DNA of 32,000 nucleotides from Pseudodesulfovibrio piezophilus C1TLV30 (GTDB lineage: Bacteria; Desulfobacterota; Desulfovibrionia; Desulfovibrionales; Desulfovibrionaceae): positions 360,001 to 392,000 of the forward strand of contig NC_020409.1 in assembly GCF_000341895.1 (NCBI RefSeq), written 5' to 3'. The position numbers were made by a program, and so were the translations under genes. The notes under the pieces were generated by a model. It made no database searches, was not told the DNA's origin, and saw nothing but the letters and a program-made list of their open reading frames with translations. The stretch's first letter is position 1, and each line of letters begins with the position of its first letter. Of this stretch, positions 4,858-27,594 are shown one piece after another.

Positions 4858-5031
4858 ATCAATCGATCGATGTTACAACATCATTCTTTTGCAGAAGAAT
4901 CGAAGTGAAAATCAAAAGCCCCTCAACATCCAGACAATGACATCTTCTCATCTCTATACGTCAGCAGTAATTTTTCGGCAACAATTTTGACGCGAATCAT
5001 CGTATGGAATTACGTGAGAAGGAATACCATG

Positions 5032-5061
5032 AAAAAGGGCAGAAGCTTTCAGCTTCCACCC
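5032..5061 (-). terminator. Intrinsic terminator ending the paaK-ACT operon
   Basis: The minus-strand RNA GGGUGGAAGCU-GAA-AGCUUCUGCCC forms 11 bp, with 2 G-U pairs that form only in this orientation, followed by UUUUU. It lies 30 nt after the ACT gene stop. Confidence 0.7.
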
Positions 5062-5091
5062 CATGATAGTCATCGACTTATTATGGCTGGG

Positions 5092-5523
5092 TTACATCGT
5101 GTATAATTTTTCACCGGGAATAATTTCGATGGTGTTTTTTTGGAGAAGTTCAATTCCTTGTTCCGTGCGATCGAAGCGCAGAATGAGGATTGCTGAATCT
5201 CCACTTTGCTGTACAAATGCATACATGTATTCAACATTGATTTCAGCATTTTGAAGCATTGTTAAAATATCATGCAACCCACCCGGTTTGTCGGGAACTT
5301 TTACTGCCACAACGGTGGTACGTCCTACAGTGAAACCATTTTCTTTCAGTTTTGCTTTAGCTTTTTCAAAATCGGAAACGATGAGACGGAGGATTCCGAA
5401 ATCCGAGGTATCTGCCAGAGACAGTGCCCGGATATTCACTTGAGCTTCCGAAAGCAGGCGGGTGACCTCGGCTAATCGGCCTGCTCGGTTTTCCAGGAAT
5501 ATGGAGAGTTGATTGACTTTCAT
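5092..5523 (-). CDS. ACT domain-containing protein (tandem ACT), partner of PaaK-type ligases
   Basis: It has an ACT fold signature (LSIFLENRAGRLAEVTRLLSEAQVNIRALS, with a second repeat VKVPDKPGGLHDILTMLQNAEINVEY). The start is preceded by AAGGAG, 24 nt after paaK. Confidence 0.8.
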   Translation of the reverse strand: MKVNQLSIFLENRAGRLAEVTRLLSEAQVNIRALSLADTSDFGILRLIVSDFEKAKAKLKENGFTVGRTTVVAVKVPDKPGGLHDILTMLQNAEINVEYMYAFVQQSGDSAILILRFDRTEQGIELLQKNTIEIIPGEKLYTM

Positions 5524-5547: not shown

Positions 5548-6852
5548 TTAAGCTTCATCCCTATTATCGATAATGCGCTTGGCTTTCCCCAAAGAGCGTT
5601 CGATACTTTTGGGCTCCACCAATTTGACCTTGGCTGTGACGCCAAGAAATTCTTTGATATTTTTCATTACCTTTGATTCCACACGCTGTAAACTCTTGAT
5701 CTCGTCAGAGAACATTGCTTCATTGACTTCGACCTGGACTTCCAAAGTGTCAAGGTTGCCTTGTCGTCCCACCAGCAGTTGGTAGTGAGGAGTCAGTCCT
5801 TCTGTCTCAATGAGAATCGATTCAATTTGAGATGGAAAAACATTGACACCACGGATGATTAGCATGTCATCGGAACGTCCGGTAACGCGTTTCATTCTGG
5901 TAGTGCTTCTTCCGCATTTGCATGGAATTGTATTTAAAGTAGTCAGGTCGCGGGTTCGGTAGCGAATGAGGGGGATACCTTCCTTGGTCAGTGTAGTGAA
6001 TACCAATTCACCTTCTTCTCCGGGGGCAACGGTTTCTCCTGATTCAGGGTCAATGGTTTCGGCCAAAAAGTGATCTTCCTGAATATGGAGTCCATCTTGT
6101 GCTTCCCAACATTCGATAGCTACTCCCGGTCCCATGATTTCTGAAAGCCCATAGATATCTATGGCTGTGATGCCAAGTCGTTTTTCTATCTGAAGACGCA
6201 TTTCGTCTGTCCAGGGCTCTGCTCCAAAAATACCAATGCGCAACGGTAACTTTTTGATGTCAATTCCCATTTCTTCGCCAGTTTCTGCCAAGAAGAGCGC
6301 ATATGAAGGAGTGCAGCAGATGACATCGGGTTCAAAATCCTTGAGCAACATAACTTGTCGGCGAGTTGCTCCGCCAGAGACGGGGATAACTGTGGCACCA
6401 AGAGCTTCAACCCCATAATGCGCCCCTAATCCGCCGGTAAAAAGGCCATACCCATAAGCGTTGTGAACAGCATCTGCCGCCGAAGCGCCGGATGCGACGA
6501 AAGAACGAGCCATAAGTTCGCCCCAATTGGTTATATCACGCTTTGTATATCCTACAACTGTGGCTTTGCCTGTCGTGCCGGACGATGAGTGAATGCGGAC
6601 GATCTGGTCTTTCGGGACAGCGAAGAGGCCAAAGGGGTATTGATCTCGGAGGTCTTGTTTATTCGTGAAGGGGAGCAGACTCAGGTCTTTCAAAGATTTA
6701 ATGTCTGTCGGTTTGACCCCTTTTTCATCAAATTTCTTTCGGTAGAATGGAACATTGGCGTAGACCCGTTCGCAGAGGGCCTGGAGTCGTCTAAGTTGAA
6801 GTTTTTCCATTTCATCACGAGGCAGTGTTTCATTCTGTATATCGTAAATCAT
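5548..6852 (-). CDS. paaK: Phenylacetate-CoA ligase family adenylate-forming enzyme
   Basis: It has a PaaK-type N-terminus ([29 protein letters not shown]) and the AMP-binding motif SSSGTTGK, at a length of about 434 aa. AAGGAGG lies upstream of the ATG. Confidence 0.88.
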
Positions 6853-6895
6853 CCCCTAGTCCTCCTTTTTGACCTTCATCAATCACGCAATCGAC

Positions 6896-6929
6896 AATAA
6901 AAAACCACGGTTCTGGAATCCCGTGGTTT
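6896..6929 (-). terminator. Intrinsic terminator in the paaK 5' leader (attenuator terminator)
   Basis: The minus-strand RNA is AAACCACGG-GAUUCCAGAA-CCGUGGUUU followed by UUUAUU. It sits only about 45 nt upstream of the paaK ATG, and no gene lies upstream for it to terminate. Confidence 0.6.
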
Positions 6930-6967
6930 GATTTGGCGCTCTAAGCCATTGCTGTTCCACGAGTTCC

Positions 6968-7024
6968 CTACTGGAAGCTCATAAAAAATGAACAGCTATA
7001 AAATAAAAAAAAATTCATAACCAT
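6968..7024 (-). CDS. Candidate leader peptide MVMNFFLFYSCSFFMSFQ (18 aa, 6 Phe)
   Basis: GAGG-N6-ATG(7024) opens the ORF. An in-frame upstream ATG at 7036 would add MRQL. The stop UAG is at 6970-6968. This ORF is too short for the supplied track. Confidence 0.45.
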   Translation of the reverse strand: MVMNFFLFYSCSFFMSFQ

Positions 7025-7264
7025 AAGCTGCCTCATGTTTTTTGTTGCGTCAAGGGCTTTATCTCACTCCTTGAATTTAAAGGAGAAGAATTTATTCATA
7101 CTAAATATGGAGTTGGAAAGATTTATTTTCGTAGTCAGTAGACTTTTCATCATAAAGAAGAGAAAATCAACATGATGAGTTGGTTATTGAGAAGAGACGT
7201 AAATCTGCATTGCAGGTGCAGGAAAAGTCCTTTACTACAGTGAAACTTGACGTAAGGAGGGTAT

Positions 7265-7849
7265 ATGAATTTCAAAGAATTGGTGGCAGCCAACAGAAGC
7301 CGCCGCCGCTTTGACCAGGCACAACTTCTCCGAAAGGAAGATCTAGTAGATTTGGTTGATACCGCTCGTTTGATGCCATCTGGTATGAACAAGCAACCAT
7401 TGAAGTATCATGTTACAGTAGATCCAACTGAATGCTCCGAAATTTTTCCTCTTTTGGGATGGGCTGGTTATCTCAAGGATTGGCCCGGTCCAAATGAAGG
7501 AGAGCGTCCGACTGGATATATTGTTGTTCTGTTGGATAAAACCATTGCTGAAGATTCTCATTGCGATCAAGGTATTGCTTCTCAGACCATTATGTTGGGA
7601 GCGGTTGAAAAAGGATTGGGTGGATGTATTATCGCCACTATCAACCGTAAAAAGCTAGGATCTATATTAGGGCTTTCTGATAATTTGGAAATCTTGCTTG
7701 TACTTGCTCTTGGAGTTCCAATTGAAGAGGTCGTCGTTGATCCTCTTTCGTCAGAGGGAAATATCAAATATTGGCGTGATTCCGTAGGTAAACACCATGT
7801 TCCAAAACGAGAGCTTGCCGAATTGCTCGTTGAACGAAACGTCTCATAA
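7265..7849 (+). CDS. Nitroreductase family protein
   Basis: It has an N-terminal NRSRRRFD motif and the size and pattern of an FMN nitroreductase fold. AAGGAGG lies 5 nt upstream of the ATG. Confidence 0.8.
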   Translation: MNFKELVAANRSRRRFDQAQLLRKEDLVDLVDTARLMPSGMNKQPLKYHVTVDPTECSEIFPLLGWAGYLKDWPGPNEGERPTGYIVVLLDKTIAEDSHCDQGIASQTIMLGAVEKGLGGCIIATINRKKLGSILGLSDNLEILLVLALGVPIEEVVVDPLSSEGNIKYWRDSVGKHHVPKRELAELLVERNVS

Positions 7850-7883
7850 GAGGCATAAACATCATAATTCCCGAGTAGGATAA

Positions 7884-8255
7884 ATGAACAAACCGAAAAA
7901 ATTTAGTGAAATATCAAGTCGTGAAAAAGCTCTTTTGGTCGCCAATTGGCTTGATGAGAAACAAGGCGAGAAAATTGTTGTCATGGATGTTGAAAAAATG
8001 AGCTCTGTGACAAATATGACTATTGTCGTTTCCGCGCGTGGAACGAAGCACGCCAAGGCTCTTGCCGATCATCTTCTGGATCAGGCGGCTAAAGACTCTG
8101 TAGAATTTTTAAGCATGGAGGGGCACCAGGCTGGAGAGTGGGTCCTGGTTGATCTGAATGATGTCCTTGTCCACATATTCCTCGATGAACTCCGGGATTT
8201 TTATAATCTTGAAGGGATGTGGGCTGAGGCTCCACGTGTGCCGTTGACTCTATAG
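7884..8255 (+). CDS. rsfS: Ribosome silencing factor RsfS (Iojap family)
   Basis: It is 123 aa. The segment DEKQGEKIVVMDVEKMSSVTNMTIVVSARGTKHAKALADHL...WVLVDLNDVLVHIF is a typical RsfS pattern. Confidence 0.88.
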   Translation: MNKPKKFSEISSREKALLVANWLDEKQGEKIVVMDVEKMSSVTNMTIVVSARGTKHAKALADHLLDQAAKDSVEFLSMEGHQAGEWVLVDLNDVLVHIFLDELRDFYNLEGMWAEAPRVPLTL

Positions 8256-8266
8256 GTGGGATAGTG

Positions 8267-9796
8267 ATGTCTCAGCCTAAAAAAACGCTTTTGCTGATTC
8301 TGGATGGTTGGGGCGTGGCACCAGAAGGTGCCGGGAACTGTGTCAAGACTGCTGACACTCCTCATCTGGATAGCATCATGGCCCACTATCCGCACACCCT
8401 TTTGGCGTGCTCAGGACGTGCTGTCGGACTCCCTGACGGTTTTATGGGGAATTCCGAAGTAGGCCATATGAATATCGGTGGTGGACGGATCATTTACCAA
8501 GATATGACCCGTATCGATATGGCTATTGAGAAAGGCGATTTCAACGGAAATCCTGTTTTGTCCGACCTTATCGAGAAGACGAAAGCGGGGAGTGGACGGC
8601 TCCATCTTATGGGTCTTGTTTCGGATGGTGGTGTCCATAGTCATATCAAGCACCTCGACGCGTTGCTTAAGCTGGCAAAAAAAGAAGGGCTCACTGAAGT
8701 CTTTGTGCATGTTTTTCTCGATGGTCGTGATACTCCTCCAACCAGCGGACTTAAATACACCCGGCAACTGATGAGTATATTAACTCAACTTGAAGTTGGT
8801 TCTGTCGCAACGATAACAGGGCGTTATTGGGTCATGGATAGGGATCAACGGTACGAGCGCGTTGAAAAGGCCTATAAAGCCTTGGTGGAAGGGAAAGGGA
8901 ATATTGTATCAGATCCATTATCAGGCATCAAAGCATCCTATGATGCCGGTGAGACTGATGAATTTTTCGAACCGAGTATTGTTGAAGGTGTCGATGGTCT
9001 ACTGCGAGACGGTGATGGGCTGTTTTTCTTCAATTTTCGTGCAGATCGTGCACGAGAGATAAGCAGGTCTCTTTTTGATTCGGATTTTGAAGAATTCGAA
9101 AGGGGGGCAGTTCCCTCATTGGCCGAGTTTGCAACAATGACTCAGTATGAATCCTCTTTTCCGCTTCCTGTAGCCTTTGCACCGGAAAAATATGCAGAAA
9201 CATTGGGTGAAGTCGTTTCTGGTAACGGATTGAAACAACTCCGTATAGCCGAGACCGAGAAATATGCCCATGTTACCTATTTTTTGAACTGCGGGCGAGA
9301 AGATCCATTCATCAAGGAAGATCGAATCATGATCCCTTCTCCTCGTGATGTTGCTACGTATGATAAAAAACCGTGCATGAGCGCGGTAAAAGTTACTGAG
9401 ACCCTGATTGAAAAGTTGAGTCAGTATGATCTTTGTGTTTGCAATTTGGCCAATCTCGATATGGTCGGACATACAGGGCTTCTTGACGCGACCTGTCAGG
9501 CTTGCATGACTGTTGATGATTGTGTGGGGAAAATAGTCAAAGCTGTACTGGAGGAGGGAGGTCGTATCCTTTTAACGGCGGATCATGGCAATGCAGAGCA
9601 GATGATCGCCACAGATGGAACTCCTCATACCGCCCATTCTACAAATCCGGTTCCTCTGGTATTCATTGAAAATGGAGCTGAAGAGGTTCTGTTGAGTGAA
9701 GGTATTCTCGCTGATATTGCCCCAACAATACTTGGCTTGTTGGGGCTGGAAAGACCTTCAGCGATGACCGGGAAAAATTTAATCATTAAAAGGTAA
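8267..9796 (+). CDS. gpmI: 2,3-bisphosphoglycerate-independent phosphoglycerate mutase
   Basis: It has the LLILDGWG and GNSEVGHMNIGGGR motifs, TADHGNAE near the C-terminus, and a length of about 509 aa. ATG 8267 is preferred over GTG 8264 because of the AGGTGGG spacing. Confidence 0.93.
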   Translation: MSQPKKTLLLILDGWGVAPEGAGNCVKTADTPHLDSIMAHYPHTLLACSGRAVGLPDGFMGNSEVGHMNIGGGRIIYQDMTRIDMAIEKGDFNGNPVLSDLIEKTKAGSGRLHLMGLVSDGGVHSHIKHLDALLKLAKKEGLTEVFVHVFLDGRDTPPTSGLKYTRQLMSILTQLEVGSVATITGRYWVMDRDQRYERVEKAYKALVEGKGNIVSDPLSGIKASYDAGETDEFFEPSIVEGVDGLLRDGDGLFFFNFRADRAREISRSLFDSDFEEFERGAVPSLAEFATMTQYESSFPLPVAFAPEKYAETLGEVVSGNGLKQLRIAETEKYAHVTYFLNCGREDPFIKEDRIMIPSPRDVATYDKKPCMSAVKVTETLIEKLSQYDLCVCNLANLDMVGHTGLLDATCQACMTVDDCVGKIVKAVLEEGGRILLTADHGNAEQMIATDGTPHTAHSTNPVPLVFIENGAEEVLLSEGILADIAPTILGLLGLERPSAMTGKNLIIKR

Positions 9797-23248: not shown

Positions 23249-23752
23249 ATGACCGTTTCTAAAATTGATCTCCTCAACAAACAGTTTTCTCGTAGGATGT
23301 TTGGGTATTCTCGCATTGAGGTTGACCAGTTCATGCTGGAATTGGCTGAAGTGCTTGGAAATGCTGCAGATAGGCGTAAGAATCTTAAACGGAAGATTCG
23401 TCAGCTTGAACACTCTGTAAAGGAGTATCGGCAACGCGACGAGACCTTGCGTGATACTTTGGTGAGCACCCAAAAGATGGTTGATGACTTAAAGGTATCA
23501 GCAAGTAAGGAAGCGCAATTGATCATGGATGAGGCGCGGGCAAAGGCCGATGCAACTGTGCAGAAAGGGCATAATCGGCTGGCGCAAATTCATGAAGAGA
23601 TAGAGGCTTTGAAAAGGCAGAGAAGTCGCTTTGAGATAGAATTAAAAGGACTGCTTAAGTCGCATTTGGAAATGGTGGAATTGAGCGAACCGGGAAGAGA
23701 CCAAGTCGAAGAGTTGGAGTCCAAGTTGAAATACTTAAAAAAAGTTGACTAA
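23249..23752 (+). CDS. DivIVA domain-containing protein
   Basis: It has the N-terminal DivIVA motif IDLLNKQFSRRMFGYSRIEVDQFM followed by coiled-coil sequence. Confidence 0.85.
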   Translation: MTVSKIDLLNKQFSRRMFGYSRIEVDQFMLELAEVLGNAADRRKNLKRKIRQLEHSVKEYRQRDETLRDTLVSTQKMVDDLKVSASKEAQLIMDEARAKADATVQKGHNRLAQIHEEIEALKRQRSRFEIELKGLLKSHLEMVELSEPGRDQVEELESKLKYLKKVD

Positions 23753-24059
23753 AGTCTTTGGCGTGTTTTCAAATGGAATTGTCAGTAAAAGTAATAAGAT
23801 TTATTTTTTCGCTTCGGAGCAAATTCCTCTTGCTGTGGGGAAAGCAGAAGGTGTTGAAGAACAGCTATGCCGGCTGTAGGCAATAGAGGGATAGGGAACT
23901 CAGGAGCTTTGAGTAATCGATTATTGAACCGGAATTGGATGGGATTGTCCGGTTCGTCAAATCAAAGCGAAAATTGGTTATCAATAATGCGGGAGTGGTT
24001 GATTTCAGTGCCTTTCTGACTTTGATCAAACGCAACAACCAGTAACAAAGGAGCGGTAC

Positions 24060-24290
24060 ATGGAAGCCAATGACATTGAACTCATTGTGAAGCATGAGGG
24101 AGAAGACGCCGAATTGAAGGCTCTATGGGATCAGCACATTGTATACGAAAAATTGTTAGATAAGATTGAGTCGAAATCCTATCATTCCCCTACGGAAATT
24201 CAGGAAATGAAAGAACTCAAGAAGAAAAAGTTGGCAGGTAAGACTCAGTTACAGACCCTGCTTGACAAATATAGAGGAGAGGAGGCTTAA
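24060..24290 (+). CDS. DUF465 (YdcH-like) small coiled-coil protein
   Basis: It has the pattern [14 protein letters not shown]....[26 protein letters not shown] lies upstream. Its stop codon is 1 nt before the ilvB ATG. Confidence 0.7.
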
Positions 24291-24291
24291 G

Positions 24292-25983
24292 ATGAAATTG
24301 ACCGGGGCCCAGATGCTACTCAAGTGTCTGGAAGAGGAAGGAGTTGATGTCATGTTCGGATTCCCGGGTGGAGCCGTCATAGACATCTATGATGAGATAC
24401 CCAATTCATCCGTTGAGCATATTCTAGTGCGCCATGAACAAGGTGCTATCCATGCTGCGGATGGATATGCCCGGGCTACAGGCCAGGTCGGGGTATGCCT
24501 AGTCACCTCCGGCCCCGGTGCCACCAATACTGTAACCGGCATTGCTACGGCATATGCTGATTCCATTCCGGTGGTCATCTTTACAGGACAGGTCCCACGT
24601 CCTCTAATCGGTAATGATGCTTTTCAGGAAGTTGATATTGTCGGTATCACCAGGCCGTGTACAAAGCATAATTATCTGGTTCAGGATATTGAAGAACTTG
24701 CCGCGACGGTCAAGCAGGCCTTTTATCTCGCCCGCTCTGGCCGTCCCGGCCCTGTCCTTGTTGACGTACCTAAAGACGTGCAGAGTCAGATCGCGGAATT
24801 TCACTATCCAGAAAAAGTGGAGATGCGCAGCTATAATCCGACGAGTAAGCCTCATGTTGGGCAAGTCCGCAAGGTTGTCAAACTGCTGAAGAATGCAAAG
24901 AGGCCGTTGATTTATTCAGGTGGGGGAGTTGTCACTTCCGGAAGTCACGAAGAATTGACATGGCTGGCAAAAGAGCTGCACATTCCAGTGACTTCTACTC
25001 TGATGGGTTTGGGAGCATTTCCTGGTAATGACGATATGTTTCTGGGAATGCTTGGTATGCATGGAACGTATGCAGCGAATATGGCGGTGAACAATTGTGA
25101 TCTACTTTTGGCTGTGGGGGCTCGATTTGATGACCGAGTAACCGGCAAGGTTGATACCTTTGCTCCCAAGGCAACGATTGTTCATATTGATATTGACCCA
25201 ACATCAATTCAAAAAAATGTCTCGGTCCATGTTCCTCTTGTCGCTGATTGTAAGTCAGCATTGTCTGCACTGAAAAAAGAGACTCGGGCAACTCAGGATG
25301 AGTTTGATTGGGCTGCGGATCACAAGGAGTGGGTTGATCAAGTACTTGCATGGAGTGCGCAGCACCCTCTGACTTATGCGGATGATGCTGAATCCATCAA
25401 ACCGCAATATGTCGTTGAGAAAATCTACGAGATAACTCAGGGCGATGCTATTATCGCCACAGAGGTCGGGCAAAATCAGATGTGGGCTGCTCAGTTTTTC
25501 AAGTATACAAAGCCCAATACTTTGCTGACATCTGGCGGGCTCGGAACCATGGGGTACGGTTTTCCCGCAGCCATGGGGGCGCAAAGGGCTTTCCCTGATA
25601 AGCTTGTGATCGACATCGCTGGAGATGGATCTATACAGATGTGTATTCAGGAAATGATGACGGTGGTCTGTAATAAGCTTCCCGTTAAGATCGTCATTCT
25701 CAATAATGGTTACCTTGGAATGGTTCGTCAATGGCAGGAGCTGTTCTATGACAAAAATTATTGTGAGACCTGCATGGATGCTCAACCTGATTTTGTTAAA
25801 CTTGCAGAGGCCTATGGAGCTGCTGGTTATCGTGTAACTGAGAAAAATGCCGTAGAATCCACGCTTCGTGAAGCTTTTGCAATTGATAAGCCTGTCATTG
25901 TCGATATACGGGTTGCTCGGGAAGAAAATGTCTACCCAATGGTCCCGGCTGGTGCCTCGTTGACCGAGATGTTGCTGGTGTAG
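24292..25983 (+). CDS. ilvB: Acetolactate synthase (acetohydroxyacid synthase) large subunit
   Basis: It has [28 protein letters not shown] and the TPP motif [16 protein letters not shown]...GDGSIQM...[18 protein letters not shown] lies upstream of ATG 24292. Confidence 0.95.
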
Positions 25984-25988
25984 GGAGA

Positions 25989-26486
25989 ATGATGATGAAT
26001 AAACATACACTTTCTGTCGTAGTTGAAAATGAACCGGGTGTGTTATCTAGAGTTGCTGGGCTTTTTAGTGGCCGCGGCTTTAATATCTATTCCTTAAATG
26101 TCGCCCCCACTCTTGAAAAAGGTGTTTCACTCATGACAATCGTTGCTGAAGGTGACGATGGCATAATTGAACAGATCGTTAAACAACTACGCAAGTTAGT
26201 TCCTACCATAAAAGTCAAGGATCTCACGGAACTTCAATCTGTTGAGCGGGAGATGGTTCTGCTCAAGGTTAATGCCGAAGATTCGAAACGAGCTGAAATT
26301 CTCCGTATTGTTGACATCTTCAGGTGTAAGGTTGTAGATGTCAGCCCCGATGAGGTGACTATTGAGGTCACTGGTGATCAGGGAAAAATCTCTGCGCTGG
26401 TGAATCTGCTCAGCCGTTTCGGAATCAAAGAGATCGCCCGCACCGGGAATGTTGCCATGCAGCGTTCCATGCAGATCGACCTATAA
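25989..26486 (+). CDS. ilvN: Acetolactate synthase small (regulatory) subunit
   Basis: It has the ACT-type N-terminus HTLSVVVENEPGVLSRVAGLFSGRGFNI. There are three consecutive ATGs (25989, 25992, 25995), and 25995 has the best spacing from GGAG. Confidence 0.92.
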   Translation: MMMNKHTLSVVVENEPGVLSRVAGLFSGRGFNIYSLNVAPTLEKGVSLMTIVAEGDDGIIEQIVKQLRKLVPTIKVKDLTELQSVEREMVLLKVNAEDSKRAEILRIVDIFRCKVVDVSPDEVTIEVTGDQGKISALVNLLSRFGIKEIARTGNVAMQRSMQIDL

Positions 26487-26505
26487 TTCGCAATCAAGCG
26501 ATTTA

Positions 26506-26541
26506 CCGGGCCAAGGGAGATTCCCTTTGCCCGGATTTTTC
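26506..26541 (+). terminator. Intrinsic terminator-like hairpin between ilvN and ilvC
   Basis: CCGGGCCAAGGGA-GAT-TCCCTTTGCCCGG forms 12 bp with 1 mismatch, followed by ATTTTTC. Confidence 0.55.
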
Positions 26542-26556
26542 GCATGTTTATATAAT
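26527..26556 (+). promoter_or_regulatory. Putative sigma70 promoter for ilvC
   Basis: TTGCCC-N18-TATAAT has a perfect -10 element. It ends 48 nt upstream of the ilvC ATG. Confidence 0.4.
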
Positions 26557-26592
26557 TCAGGAAATTGCGGCCATACGTGGCGTAAAATATGA

Positions 26593-27594
<1,002 letters not shown>

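Follow-up and report, generated by a model that had tools for sequence, protein, structure and literature searches.

The 412-nucleotide (nt) gap upstream of a paaK-family gene in Pseudodesulfovibrio piezophilus C1TLV30 appears to contain a ribosome-mediated leader-peptide transcription attenuator, which would respond to phenylalanine (Phe) and control the operon paaK-ACT, encoding a phenylacetate-CoA ligase family enzyme and an ACT-domain protein. Based on the sequences compared, we estimate the probability of this reading at about 80%. The window that was analyzed is a stretch of 32,000 nt (contig NC_020409.1, positions 360,001 to 392,000); coordinates are those of the window, and the leader and the operon are on its minus strand. 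An earlier note, made from the letters of the window alone, had proposed a candidate Phe attenuator at this site. This proposal is now supported by a conserved open reading frame (ORF), a conserved cluster of Phe codons and mutually exclusive RNA helices, and its start codon and ribosome-binding site have been corrected. The parts of the unit, their conservation, the reading frame, the exclusive helices and the geometry of the ribosome relative to them are shown by the analysis of the leader sequences.

The leader ORF (MNFFLFYSCSFFMSFQ*) occupies 6968..7018 on the minus strand and consists of 16 codons, six of which encode Phe, followed by UAG (ATG at 7018-7016, UAG at 6970-6968). Its ATG is invariant, and 25 of 26 leaders have an ORF of 15-17 codons. 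Differences in ORF length are whole codons, again in 25 of 26 leaders, and insertions and deletions between the ATG and the Phe cluster are multiples of three in all leaders except L044, which stems from a poorly assembled contig and is the only one to break the frame. The N-terminal codons in this interval vary freely. The conserved Phe-Phe-Phe cluster is located at codons 10-12. In a profile of 26 leaders that was anchored on the last Phe of the cluster, this position is Phe in 26, the preceding one in 20 (with Trp in three more) and the one before that in 23, and the codon following the cluster encodes Thr or Met in 24. In the window, the conserved codons are F11-F12 (6983..6988), and the non-conserved Phe codons are at 7012-7007, 7003-7001 and 6976-6974. 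Thus characterized, a short ORF with clustered Phe codons is conserved in orthologous leaders of at least five genera.

The T tract also shows the phase of a coding sequence. Of 24 C residues flanked by T, 23 are at codon position 3, which indicates that the tract serves as a series of Phe codons; the remaining one is from a contig in which paaK is frameshifted as well. The same bases contain 106 Phe codons in the ORF frame versus 44 and 49 in the other two frames. The ORF that the earlier note had read from the ATG at 7024 (MVMNFFLFYSCSFFMSFQ), with its UAG at 6970-6968, is present, but neither of the two starts considered there was retained. The ATG at 7024, immediately adjacent to the conserved -10-like hexamer, lacks an equivalent in other species, and the ATG at 7036, within the promoter spacer, is either lacking or in another frame in those species; the conserved start is the ATG at 7018. 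In L002, L020 and L024, and also in L018 and L009, the Phe cluster is interrupted by Trp (FFWF) or immediately preceded by Tyr (YYFFF, NYFFFF). These codons hint at some sensitivity to other aromatic amino acids.

The minus-strand RNA from 7040 to 6890 (151 nt) was folded, and an energy of -43.2 kcal/mol was obtained (z = -3.6 versus shuffles). Within this fold, the 3' part of the ORF together with its stop codon is enclosed by a long hairpin, and a small hairpin and the terminator are also present. All elements described in the earlier note are found in the sequence at the positions given there. Segment 1 (6973..6996), the 5' side of the 1:2 hairpin in the minimum-energy fold, consists of UAUGAGCUUCC (6983-6973) and a window-specific extension, GCUGUUC (6996-6990). 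It begins at the last Phe codon of the cluster, and the stop codon is in the 1:2 loop. Segment 2 (6951..6968), consisting of GGGAACUCGUGG (6968-6957) and GAACAGC (to 6951), contains an invariant CGTG and can pair with segment 1 or with segment 3. In the loop of the antiterminator, a small hairpin (GGCU...GCGCC region, 6934..6948) was seen in folds, and a GGC(N)/(N)GCC hairpin occupies this position in most orthologues, as judged by inspection of their folds. Segment 3 (CCACGGGAUUCC, 6915..6926), with an invariant CCACGG, serves as the 5' arm and loop of the terminator as well as the 3' side of the antiterminator, and its proposed pairing with segment 2 (6968-6957 with 6926-6915) involves 11 of 12 positions. 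The predicted intrinsic terminator (6896..6929) is as it had been described, with AAACCACGG, a 10-nt loop and CCGUGGUUU followed by UUUAUU. Its hairpin has an energy of -13.4 kcal/mol and a GC-rich stem of nine base pairs (bp), followed by UUUUUUAUU, and the paaK ATG is 44 nt past the U tract. The promoter/terminator scan missed this terminator because the 10-nt loop exceeds the limit of 8 of the tool. Across the family, the energies of the terminator hairpins range from -12.7 to -21.2 kcal/mol.

All three helices are conserved, with 81-91% of cells paired versus 31-50% in controls with slid partners, and some of the changes within them are compensatory. RNAalifold, applied to 13 sequences, predicted the 1:2 helix (UUUACGAG... 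with ...CUCGUGGA) and the terminator. This program gives a single consensus fold, which contained only 1:2 and 3:4, and 2:3 was tested as a named structure. Among 26 leaders, the 1:2 helix was paired in 85.5% of cells, with four pairs changed on both sides, and the 3:4 terminator in 97.9%, with three pairs showing A-U to G-C changes. Jointly, 1:2 and 3:4 were paired in 91% of cells versus 31-50% in slid controls, with seven pairs changed on both sides. For the 2:3 helix (8-13 bp), the value was 88.7% versus 33-47% in slid controls (81-89% versus 32-48% over all counts of this helix), and four pairs were changed on both sides. Individual pairs illustrate these changes. In an anchor-based table of 30 leaders, the 2:3 pair k=8 occurred as A-U (16), G-U (5), G-C (2) and U-A (2), and the pair k=7 as G-C (25) and A-U (1). 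Compensatory changes in 1:2 were found at pairs 45-61 and 47-59. Column 61 is under dual constraint: it changes from C to U together with its partner in segment 1 (G-C to A-U), and it still pairs with the G of segment 3.

Next, the position of the ribosome was considered, which was assumed to cover 13 nt, counted from the first base of the codon in the A site. When segment 1 was masked by a ribosome on the last Phe codon of the cluster and segment 4 was not yet transcribed, the 2:3 antiterminator was the minimum-energy fold in 25 of 26 leaders, the exception being L008, with energies from -14.0 to -25.2 kcal/mol (-20.0 kcal/mol in the window). The same fold was obtained for the distant leaders L052, L055, L056 and L059. 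In the full-length free RNA, by comparison, the fold with 1:2 and the terminator was better than the antiterminator in 30 of 30 leaders, by a median of 10.1 kcal/mol. Masking segment 1 in the full-length RNA reduced the gap between the two folds to a median of 1.8 kcal/mol, which is so small that the order of synthesis can decide the outcome. When the ribosome was placed on the stop codon, its cover ended no more than 3 nt from the 3' end of the segment-2 core in 30 of 30 leaders, and exactly there in 19. The folds and the stop-codon cover together match the 1:2, 2:3 and 3:4 geometry of classical ribosome-mediated attenuators, to which the site had been likened in the earlier note.

The distribution of the unit, composed of promoter, ORF and switch, was analyzed in genomes and metagenomes. 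A genome scan with the PaaK protein yielded 21 loci, and the unit was found upstream of paaK in all 12 loci with 81-89% PaaK identity (Pseudodesulfovibrio and 'Desulfovibrio'). The order in these 12 orthologues is TTGAC(G/T/A), 17 nt, CAnnnT, 7 nt, ATG and an ORF of 15-16 codons. The leader was not found in eight full-length PaaK homologues with 66% identity or less (L010-L014, L016, L017, L019). A metagenome scan with a pattern for RNA segments 2-4 only (TCGTGG...ACCACGGG...CCGTGGTT) yielded 30 stretches, of which 14 contained the full unit; paaK was next in all 14, with the ACT gene after it on contigs of sufficient length. The other 16 were chance matches, that is, coding sequence or a tRNA with a terminator, and had no leader ORF. 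Among more distant orthologues, which were fetched at 74-81% identity, the unit was found with the same spacing of promoter and ATG in Maridesulfovibrio hydrothermalis (leader peptide MLNHDFFTFFRFFFFWTIN), a second Maridesulfovibrio (MLNHDLFSFFFFFFFRTEI), Salidesulfovibrio onnuriiensis (MIKLFFFRFFFFMDLT) and D. oxyclinae (MLKQFFTVFFLFMNPT); D. aminophilus (MWRNSLFFFRLRTPRTPTGP) has the unit with different helices. Taken together, the whole unit is conserved in 30 sequences besides the window, and every one of them is upstream of paaK and none is in front of another gene. A covariance model (R1) was built from 26 leaders. It detected copies outside the training set in Salidesulfovibrio, D. oxyclinae and Maridesulfovibrio with E = 6e-12, 1e-9, 2e-4 and 1e-3, and a single copy in the window, at 6893-7018. 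In the two Maridesulfovibrio leaders (L052:2317-2453 and L059:1316-1454), the minimum-energy fold joins segment 2 (CGUGGUUAUGG) to codons 2-5 (CUUAACCAYGA), at the very start of the ORF, instead of to the codons past the Phe run, and this run is longer, with eight Phe codons, up to seven of them consecutive. As modelled, this is a differently wired anti-antiterminator.

The leader transcript probably begins at or directly beside the AUG, so that the ORF would be leaderless. A -35-like hexamer, TTGACG (7048..7053), has a conserved AWAAACCCC-like stretch on its 5' side. CTTGAC is invariant in 13 of 13 aligned sequences, and TTGAC[GATC] is present in every leader found. Conservation starts about 8 nt upstream of TTGAC, also in loci with a different upstream gene. 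A -10-like hexamer, CAGCTT (7025..7030; family pattern CAnnnT, with C, A and the last T invariant), follows the -35-like hexamer after 17 nt, a spacing found in 12 of 13 sequences. The gap between this hexamer and the ATG is 7 nt in 12 of 12 orthologues and 6 nt in the window, and is again 7 nt in Maridesulfovibrio, D. oxyclinae and D. aminophilus, for which the hexamers were assigned by eye. The length of this gap is fixed and its bases are free to vary, most leaders have a pyrimidine immediately before the ATG, and no Shine-Dalgarno motif before the ORF is conserved among the leaders compared. A leaderless start is suggested by these features together with the onset of conservation. Alternatively, the same attenuator could be translated conventionally from a longer 5' untranslated region, with a promoter farther upstream and GAGG/GGGG as the ribosome-binding site, which we regard as rather unlikely. 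A G-rich motif (GAGG, GGGG) is indeed present 13 nt before the conserved ATG in many leaders, and in the window it is 6 nt before the ATG at 7024, and the weak match of the -10-like hexamer to the consensus would also suit this alternative. However, 13 nt is an excessive spacing, the ATG at 7024 is without a counterpart in other species, and the motif is replaced by GTGCA in L041 and L037, by CGGCCA in L033 and by GAGACA in L049. In addition, conservation does not extend more than about 8 nt beyond TTGAC on the 5' side, also in loci with another upstream gene, and a fixed 7-nt distance with variable bases is what a transcription start at the ATG would entail. The GAGG that had earlier been taken for a Shine-Dalgarno motif is thus reassigned: it is part of the conserved promoter spacer (ACATGRGG) and is not conserved as such.

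Other explanations dispense with codon sensing altogether. An RNA switch that binds Phe, phenylacetate or the ACT protein, with the short ORF being incidental, would profit from the highly conserved helix cores and small internal hairpin and from the co-transcription of an amino-acid-binding ACT protein, and a terminator/antiterminator logic suits a riboswitch equally well. It is nevertheless very unlikely, because the frame is conserved (the ATG is invariant, length changes are whole codons, and 23 of the 24 C residues are at third positions) while the sequence from the ATG to the Phe cluster varies freely. Moreover, segment 1 and the 3' end of the ORF overlap, the position of the stop codon is such that a terminating ribosome would cover segment 2, the short and variable interval between segments 2 and 3 leaves little space for a ligand pocket, and no Rfam family matches. 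We consider it just as improbable that a small molecule triggers ribosome arrest by the nascent peptide FFF(T/M)xS, in a TnaC-like manner, instead of the charging of tRNA-Phe being sensed. The C-terminal half of the peptide (F-F-F-T/M-x-S) is better conserved than the N-terminal half, which favours arrest, but the conserved codons past the Phe cluster (ACG/AUG, AGC, ...) are the very bases that pair with segment 2, and this RNA pairing explains their conservation. Furthermore, the peptides of Maridesulfovibrio and D. aminophilus have only the Phe run in common, and runs of 3-7 Phe codons are a hallmark of codon-based sensing. Finally, the earlier note had cautioned that the Phe codons could simply reflect a T-rich promoter region. 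At this site the window is rich in A and T, three of the six Phe codons stem from a T9 run, and an open frame of 16 codons is not rare per se. A chance combination of such a region with an ordinary terminator or an unrelated hairpin, without a regulatory ORF, is nonetheless hardly credible, because it is contradicted by the conservation of the unit across genera, the codon-phase test favours the coding frame, and the terminator has no upstream gene to serve. In addition, the T9 run (codons 3-5) is not conserved and differs from the cluster at codons 10-12, which is.

Several observations weigh against Phe-responsive attenuation at paaK-ACT. When segment 1 was masked in RNA that included segment 4, the equilibrium still slightly favoured the terminator in 20 of 30 leaders, and thus the switch must be kinetic; in five of these 20, the stall had been placed on a C-terminal Phe, which penalises the antiterminator. 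The 2:3 helix was not significant in the shuffle control, as 41 of 500 shuffles reached its percentage of paired cells and 64 of 500 its covariation score. This is due to the core of the helix, which never varies, and the support for 2:3 was therefore taken from the slid controls and the individual compensatory pairs. More generally, the cores of all three helices are invariant, and covariation is modest. The -10-like hexamer is a poor match to TATAAT, and a consensus promoter scan made no call at this site, so that the assignment of the promoter rests on conservation. At the extra early Phe codons of the window (F3, F4, F6), ribosomes would stall before they could open the switch. The unit is also not universal among relatives. 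Desulfocurvibacter africanus (L053) and Oceanidesulfovibrio (L057) do not have it. Humidesulfovibrio mexicanus (L054:2250-2500) has the layout of promoter, 7 nt and ATG with a 16-codon ORF that lacks Phe (MLNLLHSLARSHRPGS), and this region has no clear U-tract terminator and no match to the covariance model; the leader may be decayed or re-purposed. In the metagenome contig L029 (PDWI01001537.1, 3020-3190), a deletion of about 8 nt removes the stop codon and most of segment 1, and the Phe-rich ORF runs on through segment 2 and the terminator (MKTLFFLRSFFFMIGSSW...), which could represent a natural variant, constitutive or otherwise altered, or be due to faulty assembly. In the metagenome-assembled genome FCS_M_Desulfobacterota_19 (L008:2834-2960), the leader ORF has one Phe codon only (MKLLLSPRPFPLTSPR), segment 1 is shifted onto codons 15-16 (CCCACGG pairs with UCGUGGG), and this is the only one of 26 leaders without a predicted antiterminator fold.

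From the arrangement as a whole we infer a transcription start, actual translation of the ORF and a response to Phe, and attenuation at paaK-ACT would proceed as follows. Transcription would start from the conserved TTGAC-17-CAnnnT promoter, and the 16-codon ORF would be translated, probably in a leaderless or near-leaderless manner. When Phe-tRNA is plentiful, the ribosome would reach the stop codon and cover segment 2; segments 3 and 4 would then form the terminator, and transcription would end about 45 nt before paaK. When the leader is not translated at all, segments 1 and 2 would pair, again leading to termination. When Phe-tRNA is scarce, the ribosome would stall at Phe-Phe-Phe (codons 10-12) and cover segment 1, so that segment 2 could pair with segment 3 ahead of the synthesis of segment 4. 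Formation of 2:3 would preclude the terminator, and paaK-ACT would be transcribed.

The operon that would be controlled in this way consists of two genes. The paaK-family phenylacetate-CoA ligase gene (5548..6852, minus strand) begins with an ATG at 6852, preceded by AGGAGG at a distance of 8 nt. Its product contains the Pfam domains AMP-binding and AMP-binding_C_2, and it scored 626.8 bits against TIGR02155 PaaK, just below the equivalog cut-off of 646.3, and E = 1e-154 against PDB 2y27, deposited as phenylacetate-coenzyme A ligase. Its identity to a known protein of P. piezophilus is 100%. The second gene (5092..5523, minus strand) encodes an ACT-domain-pair protein of 143 amino acids (Pfam ACT_8, 1.3e-29; PDB 2f06, 4e-29), and it is found 3' of paaK in every Desulfovibrionaceae locus examined, with the exception of L057. 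The operon has its own terminator, as had been noted earlier: the promoter/terminator scan located it at 5026..5062 on the minus strand, 30 nt past the ACT stop codon, with a 12-pair stem (5062-5036) followed by the T run TTTTCATGGT. Many orthologues (L001-L009 and L020) have a conserved hairpin-like element, GGCCGATTCAGGCC, directly before the paaK AAGGAGG, in place of which the window has GTCGATTGCGTGATTGATGAAGGTC before the ribosome-binding site; this element could modulate paaK translation.

On the other side of the leader, the nitroreductase-family gene (start at 7265), followed by rsfS and the phosphoglycerate mutase gene, is divergent from paaK. Therefore, the 412-nt gap is a 5' region, and a terminator inside it serves no other gene. 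The synteny of the nitroreductase-family gene, rsfS and the cofactor-independent phosphoglycerate mutase gene (7265-9796, plus strand) with paaK-ACT is kept in L052, L053, L055, L056 and L058, and thus in several genera of the Desulfovibrionaceae. In other genera, rtcB is often found 3' of the ACT gene, which is not the case in the window. Elsewhere in the window, the region upstream of ilvB-ilvN-ilvC (24262-27594, plus strand) was inspected from 23740 to 24290, and no branched-chain leader-peptide attenuator was seen; a 76-codon ORF (24060-24290, plus strand) overlaps the listed TTG start of ilvB.

As attenuation at Phe codons turns genes on when Phe-tRNA is scarce, PaaK-ACT should serve the supply of Phe and not its breakdown. 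PaaK would activate phenylacetate for reductive carboxylation to phenylpyruvate, which would then be converted to Phe, and the ACT protein is a plausible amino-acid-binding partner, judging from its domains. Rumen anaerobes make Phe from phenylacetate. For Methanococcus maripaludis, the formation of aromatic amino acids from aryl acids via indolepyruvate oxidoreductase is reported by Porat et al., according to the citation in PMC4162585. An aryl-acid route of this kind provides a physiological logic for induction of the operon under Phe starvation. A route via ligase and oxidoreductase that also accepts indoleacetate or hydroxyphenylacetate would fit a sensitivity of the leader to Trp or Tyr. 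We tentatively propose a broader picture, in which a leaderless leader ORF, suggested by the 7-nt spacing of promoter and ATG that is kept in at least five genera, governs a hitherto unrecognised aryl-acid salvage module of marine sulfate reducers, with PaaK and ACT feeding phenylacetate to Phe. Possibly, the module feeds indoleacetate and hydroxyphenylacetate as well, as the Trp and Tyr codons in or beside the Phe cluster (FFWF, YYFFF) suggest. If this picture is true, a leaderless leader-peptide attenuator outside the Actinobacteria would govern salvage and not de novo synthesis. The attenuator would also provide regulatory evidence on the role of the PaaK-ACT pair, which is widespread in anaerobes, namely that it is anabolic (phenylacetate to phenylalanine) rather than part of aromatic catabolism. 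The leader is small, conserved and easily tested by reporter fusions.

The most obvious known counterparts are pheL-pheA and pheM-pheST of E. coli (Rfam Phe_leader, RF01859). They share with the paaK leader a cluster of Phe codons in a short ORF (14-16 codons), the same order of 1:2, 2:3 and 3:4, an intrinsic terminator just before the regulated gene and a predicted read-through when Phe-tRNA is scarce. They differ in that there is no homology of sequence or structure to the paaK leader and in the phylum, the latter belonging to the Desulfovibrionaceae, and they control chorismate mutase/prephenate dehydratase or Phe-tRNA synthetase, whereas the paaK leader would control an aryl-acid CoA ligase and an ACT protein. 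Furthermore, unlike theirs, the ORF of the paaK leader apparently lacks a Shine-Dalgarno motif and would begin at the 5' end of the transcript. The comparison with the Rfam leader families, which had been suggested earlier, was made, and the paaK leader matches none of them: Phe_leader had no match in 6500-7600 at E up to 10, the E-value scan of this region returned nothing but noise, namely mycoplasma_FSE at the A/T run, TEG147 at the hairpin of the terminator, and Spd-sr37, and the scan of the whole window at gathering thresholds returned no family. With the trpL, hisL, leuL, thrL and ilv attenuators of Proteobacteria, the paaK leader has in common that the terminating ribosome would mask segment 2 and that untranslated RNA would terminate via 1:2. 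The amino acid and the helices are different, and paaK-ACT would be a salvage operon and not one of de novo biosynthesis.

With respect to the probable leaderless start, the closest parallel is found in mycobacteria, in which leaderless cysteine-rich short ORFs reportedly attenuate downstream operons, in work attributed to Canestrari and colleagues from 2020; these cases are said not to have been described as a canonical terminator/antiterminator pair. Like these, the paaK leader would have a regulatory ORF at the transcription start, with a cluster of codons for the amino acid that is sensed. The phylum and the amino acid are different, and for the paaK leader the leaderless start is derived from promoter spacing. 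If this start is confirmed, leaderless short ORFs that sense codons would extend beyond mycobacteria. The same PaaK-ACT pair is found in iorA-iorB-paaK-ACT operons of anaerobes, including a Clostridia genome, whereas the paaK-ACT operon of the Desulfovibrionaceae is a separate unit that has a promoter, an attenuator and a terminator to itself, and no ior genes are present within the 32-kb window. Full-text literature searches returned no description of a paaK leader peptide or attenuator, or of leader-peptide attenuation in sulfate reducers, and the paaK leader is unmentioned in the regulons of delta-proteobacteria (Rodionov 2004), in Desulfovibrio fitness studies and in the pressure transcriptome of D. 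hydrothermalis. A well-supported leader-peptide attenuator would thereby be added to the Desulfovibrionaceae, for which none was described in the literature searched. In summary, the paaK leader is apparently a new attenuator of the classical leader-peptide class, which is unusual in its lineage, its operon and its probable leaderless start.

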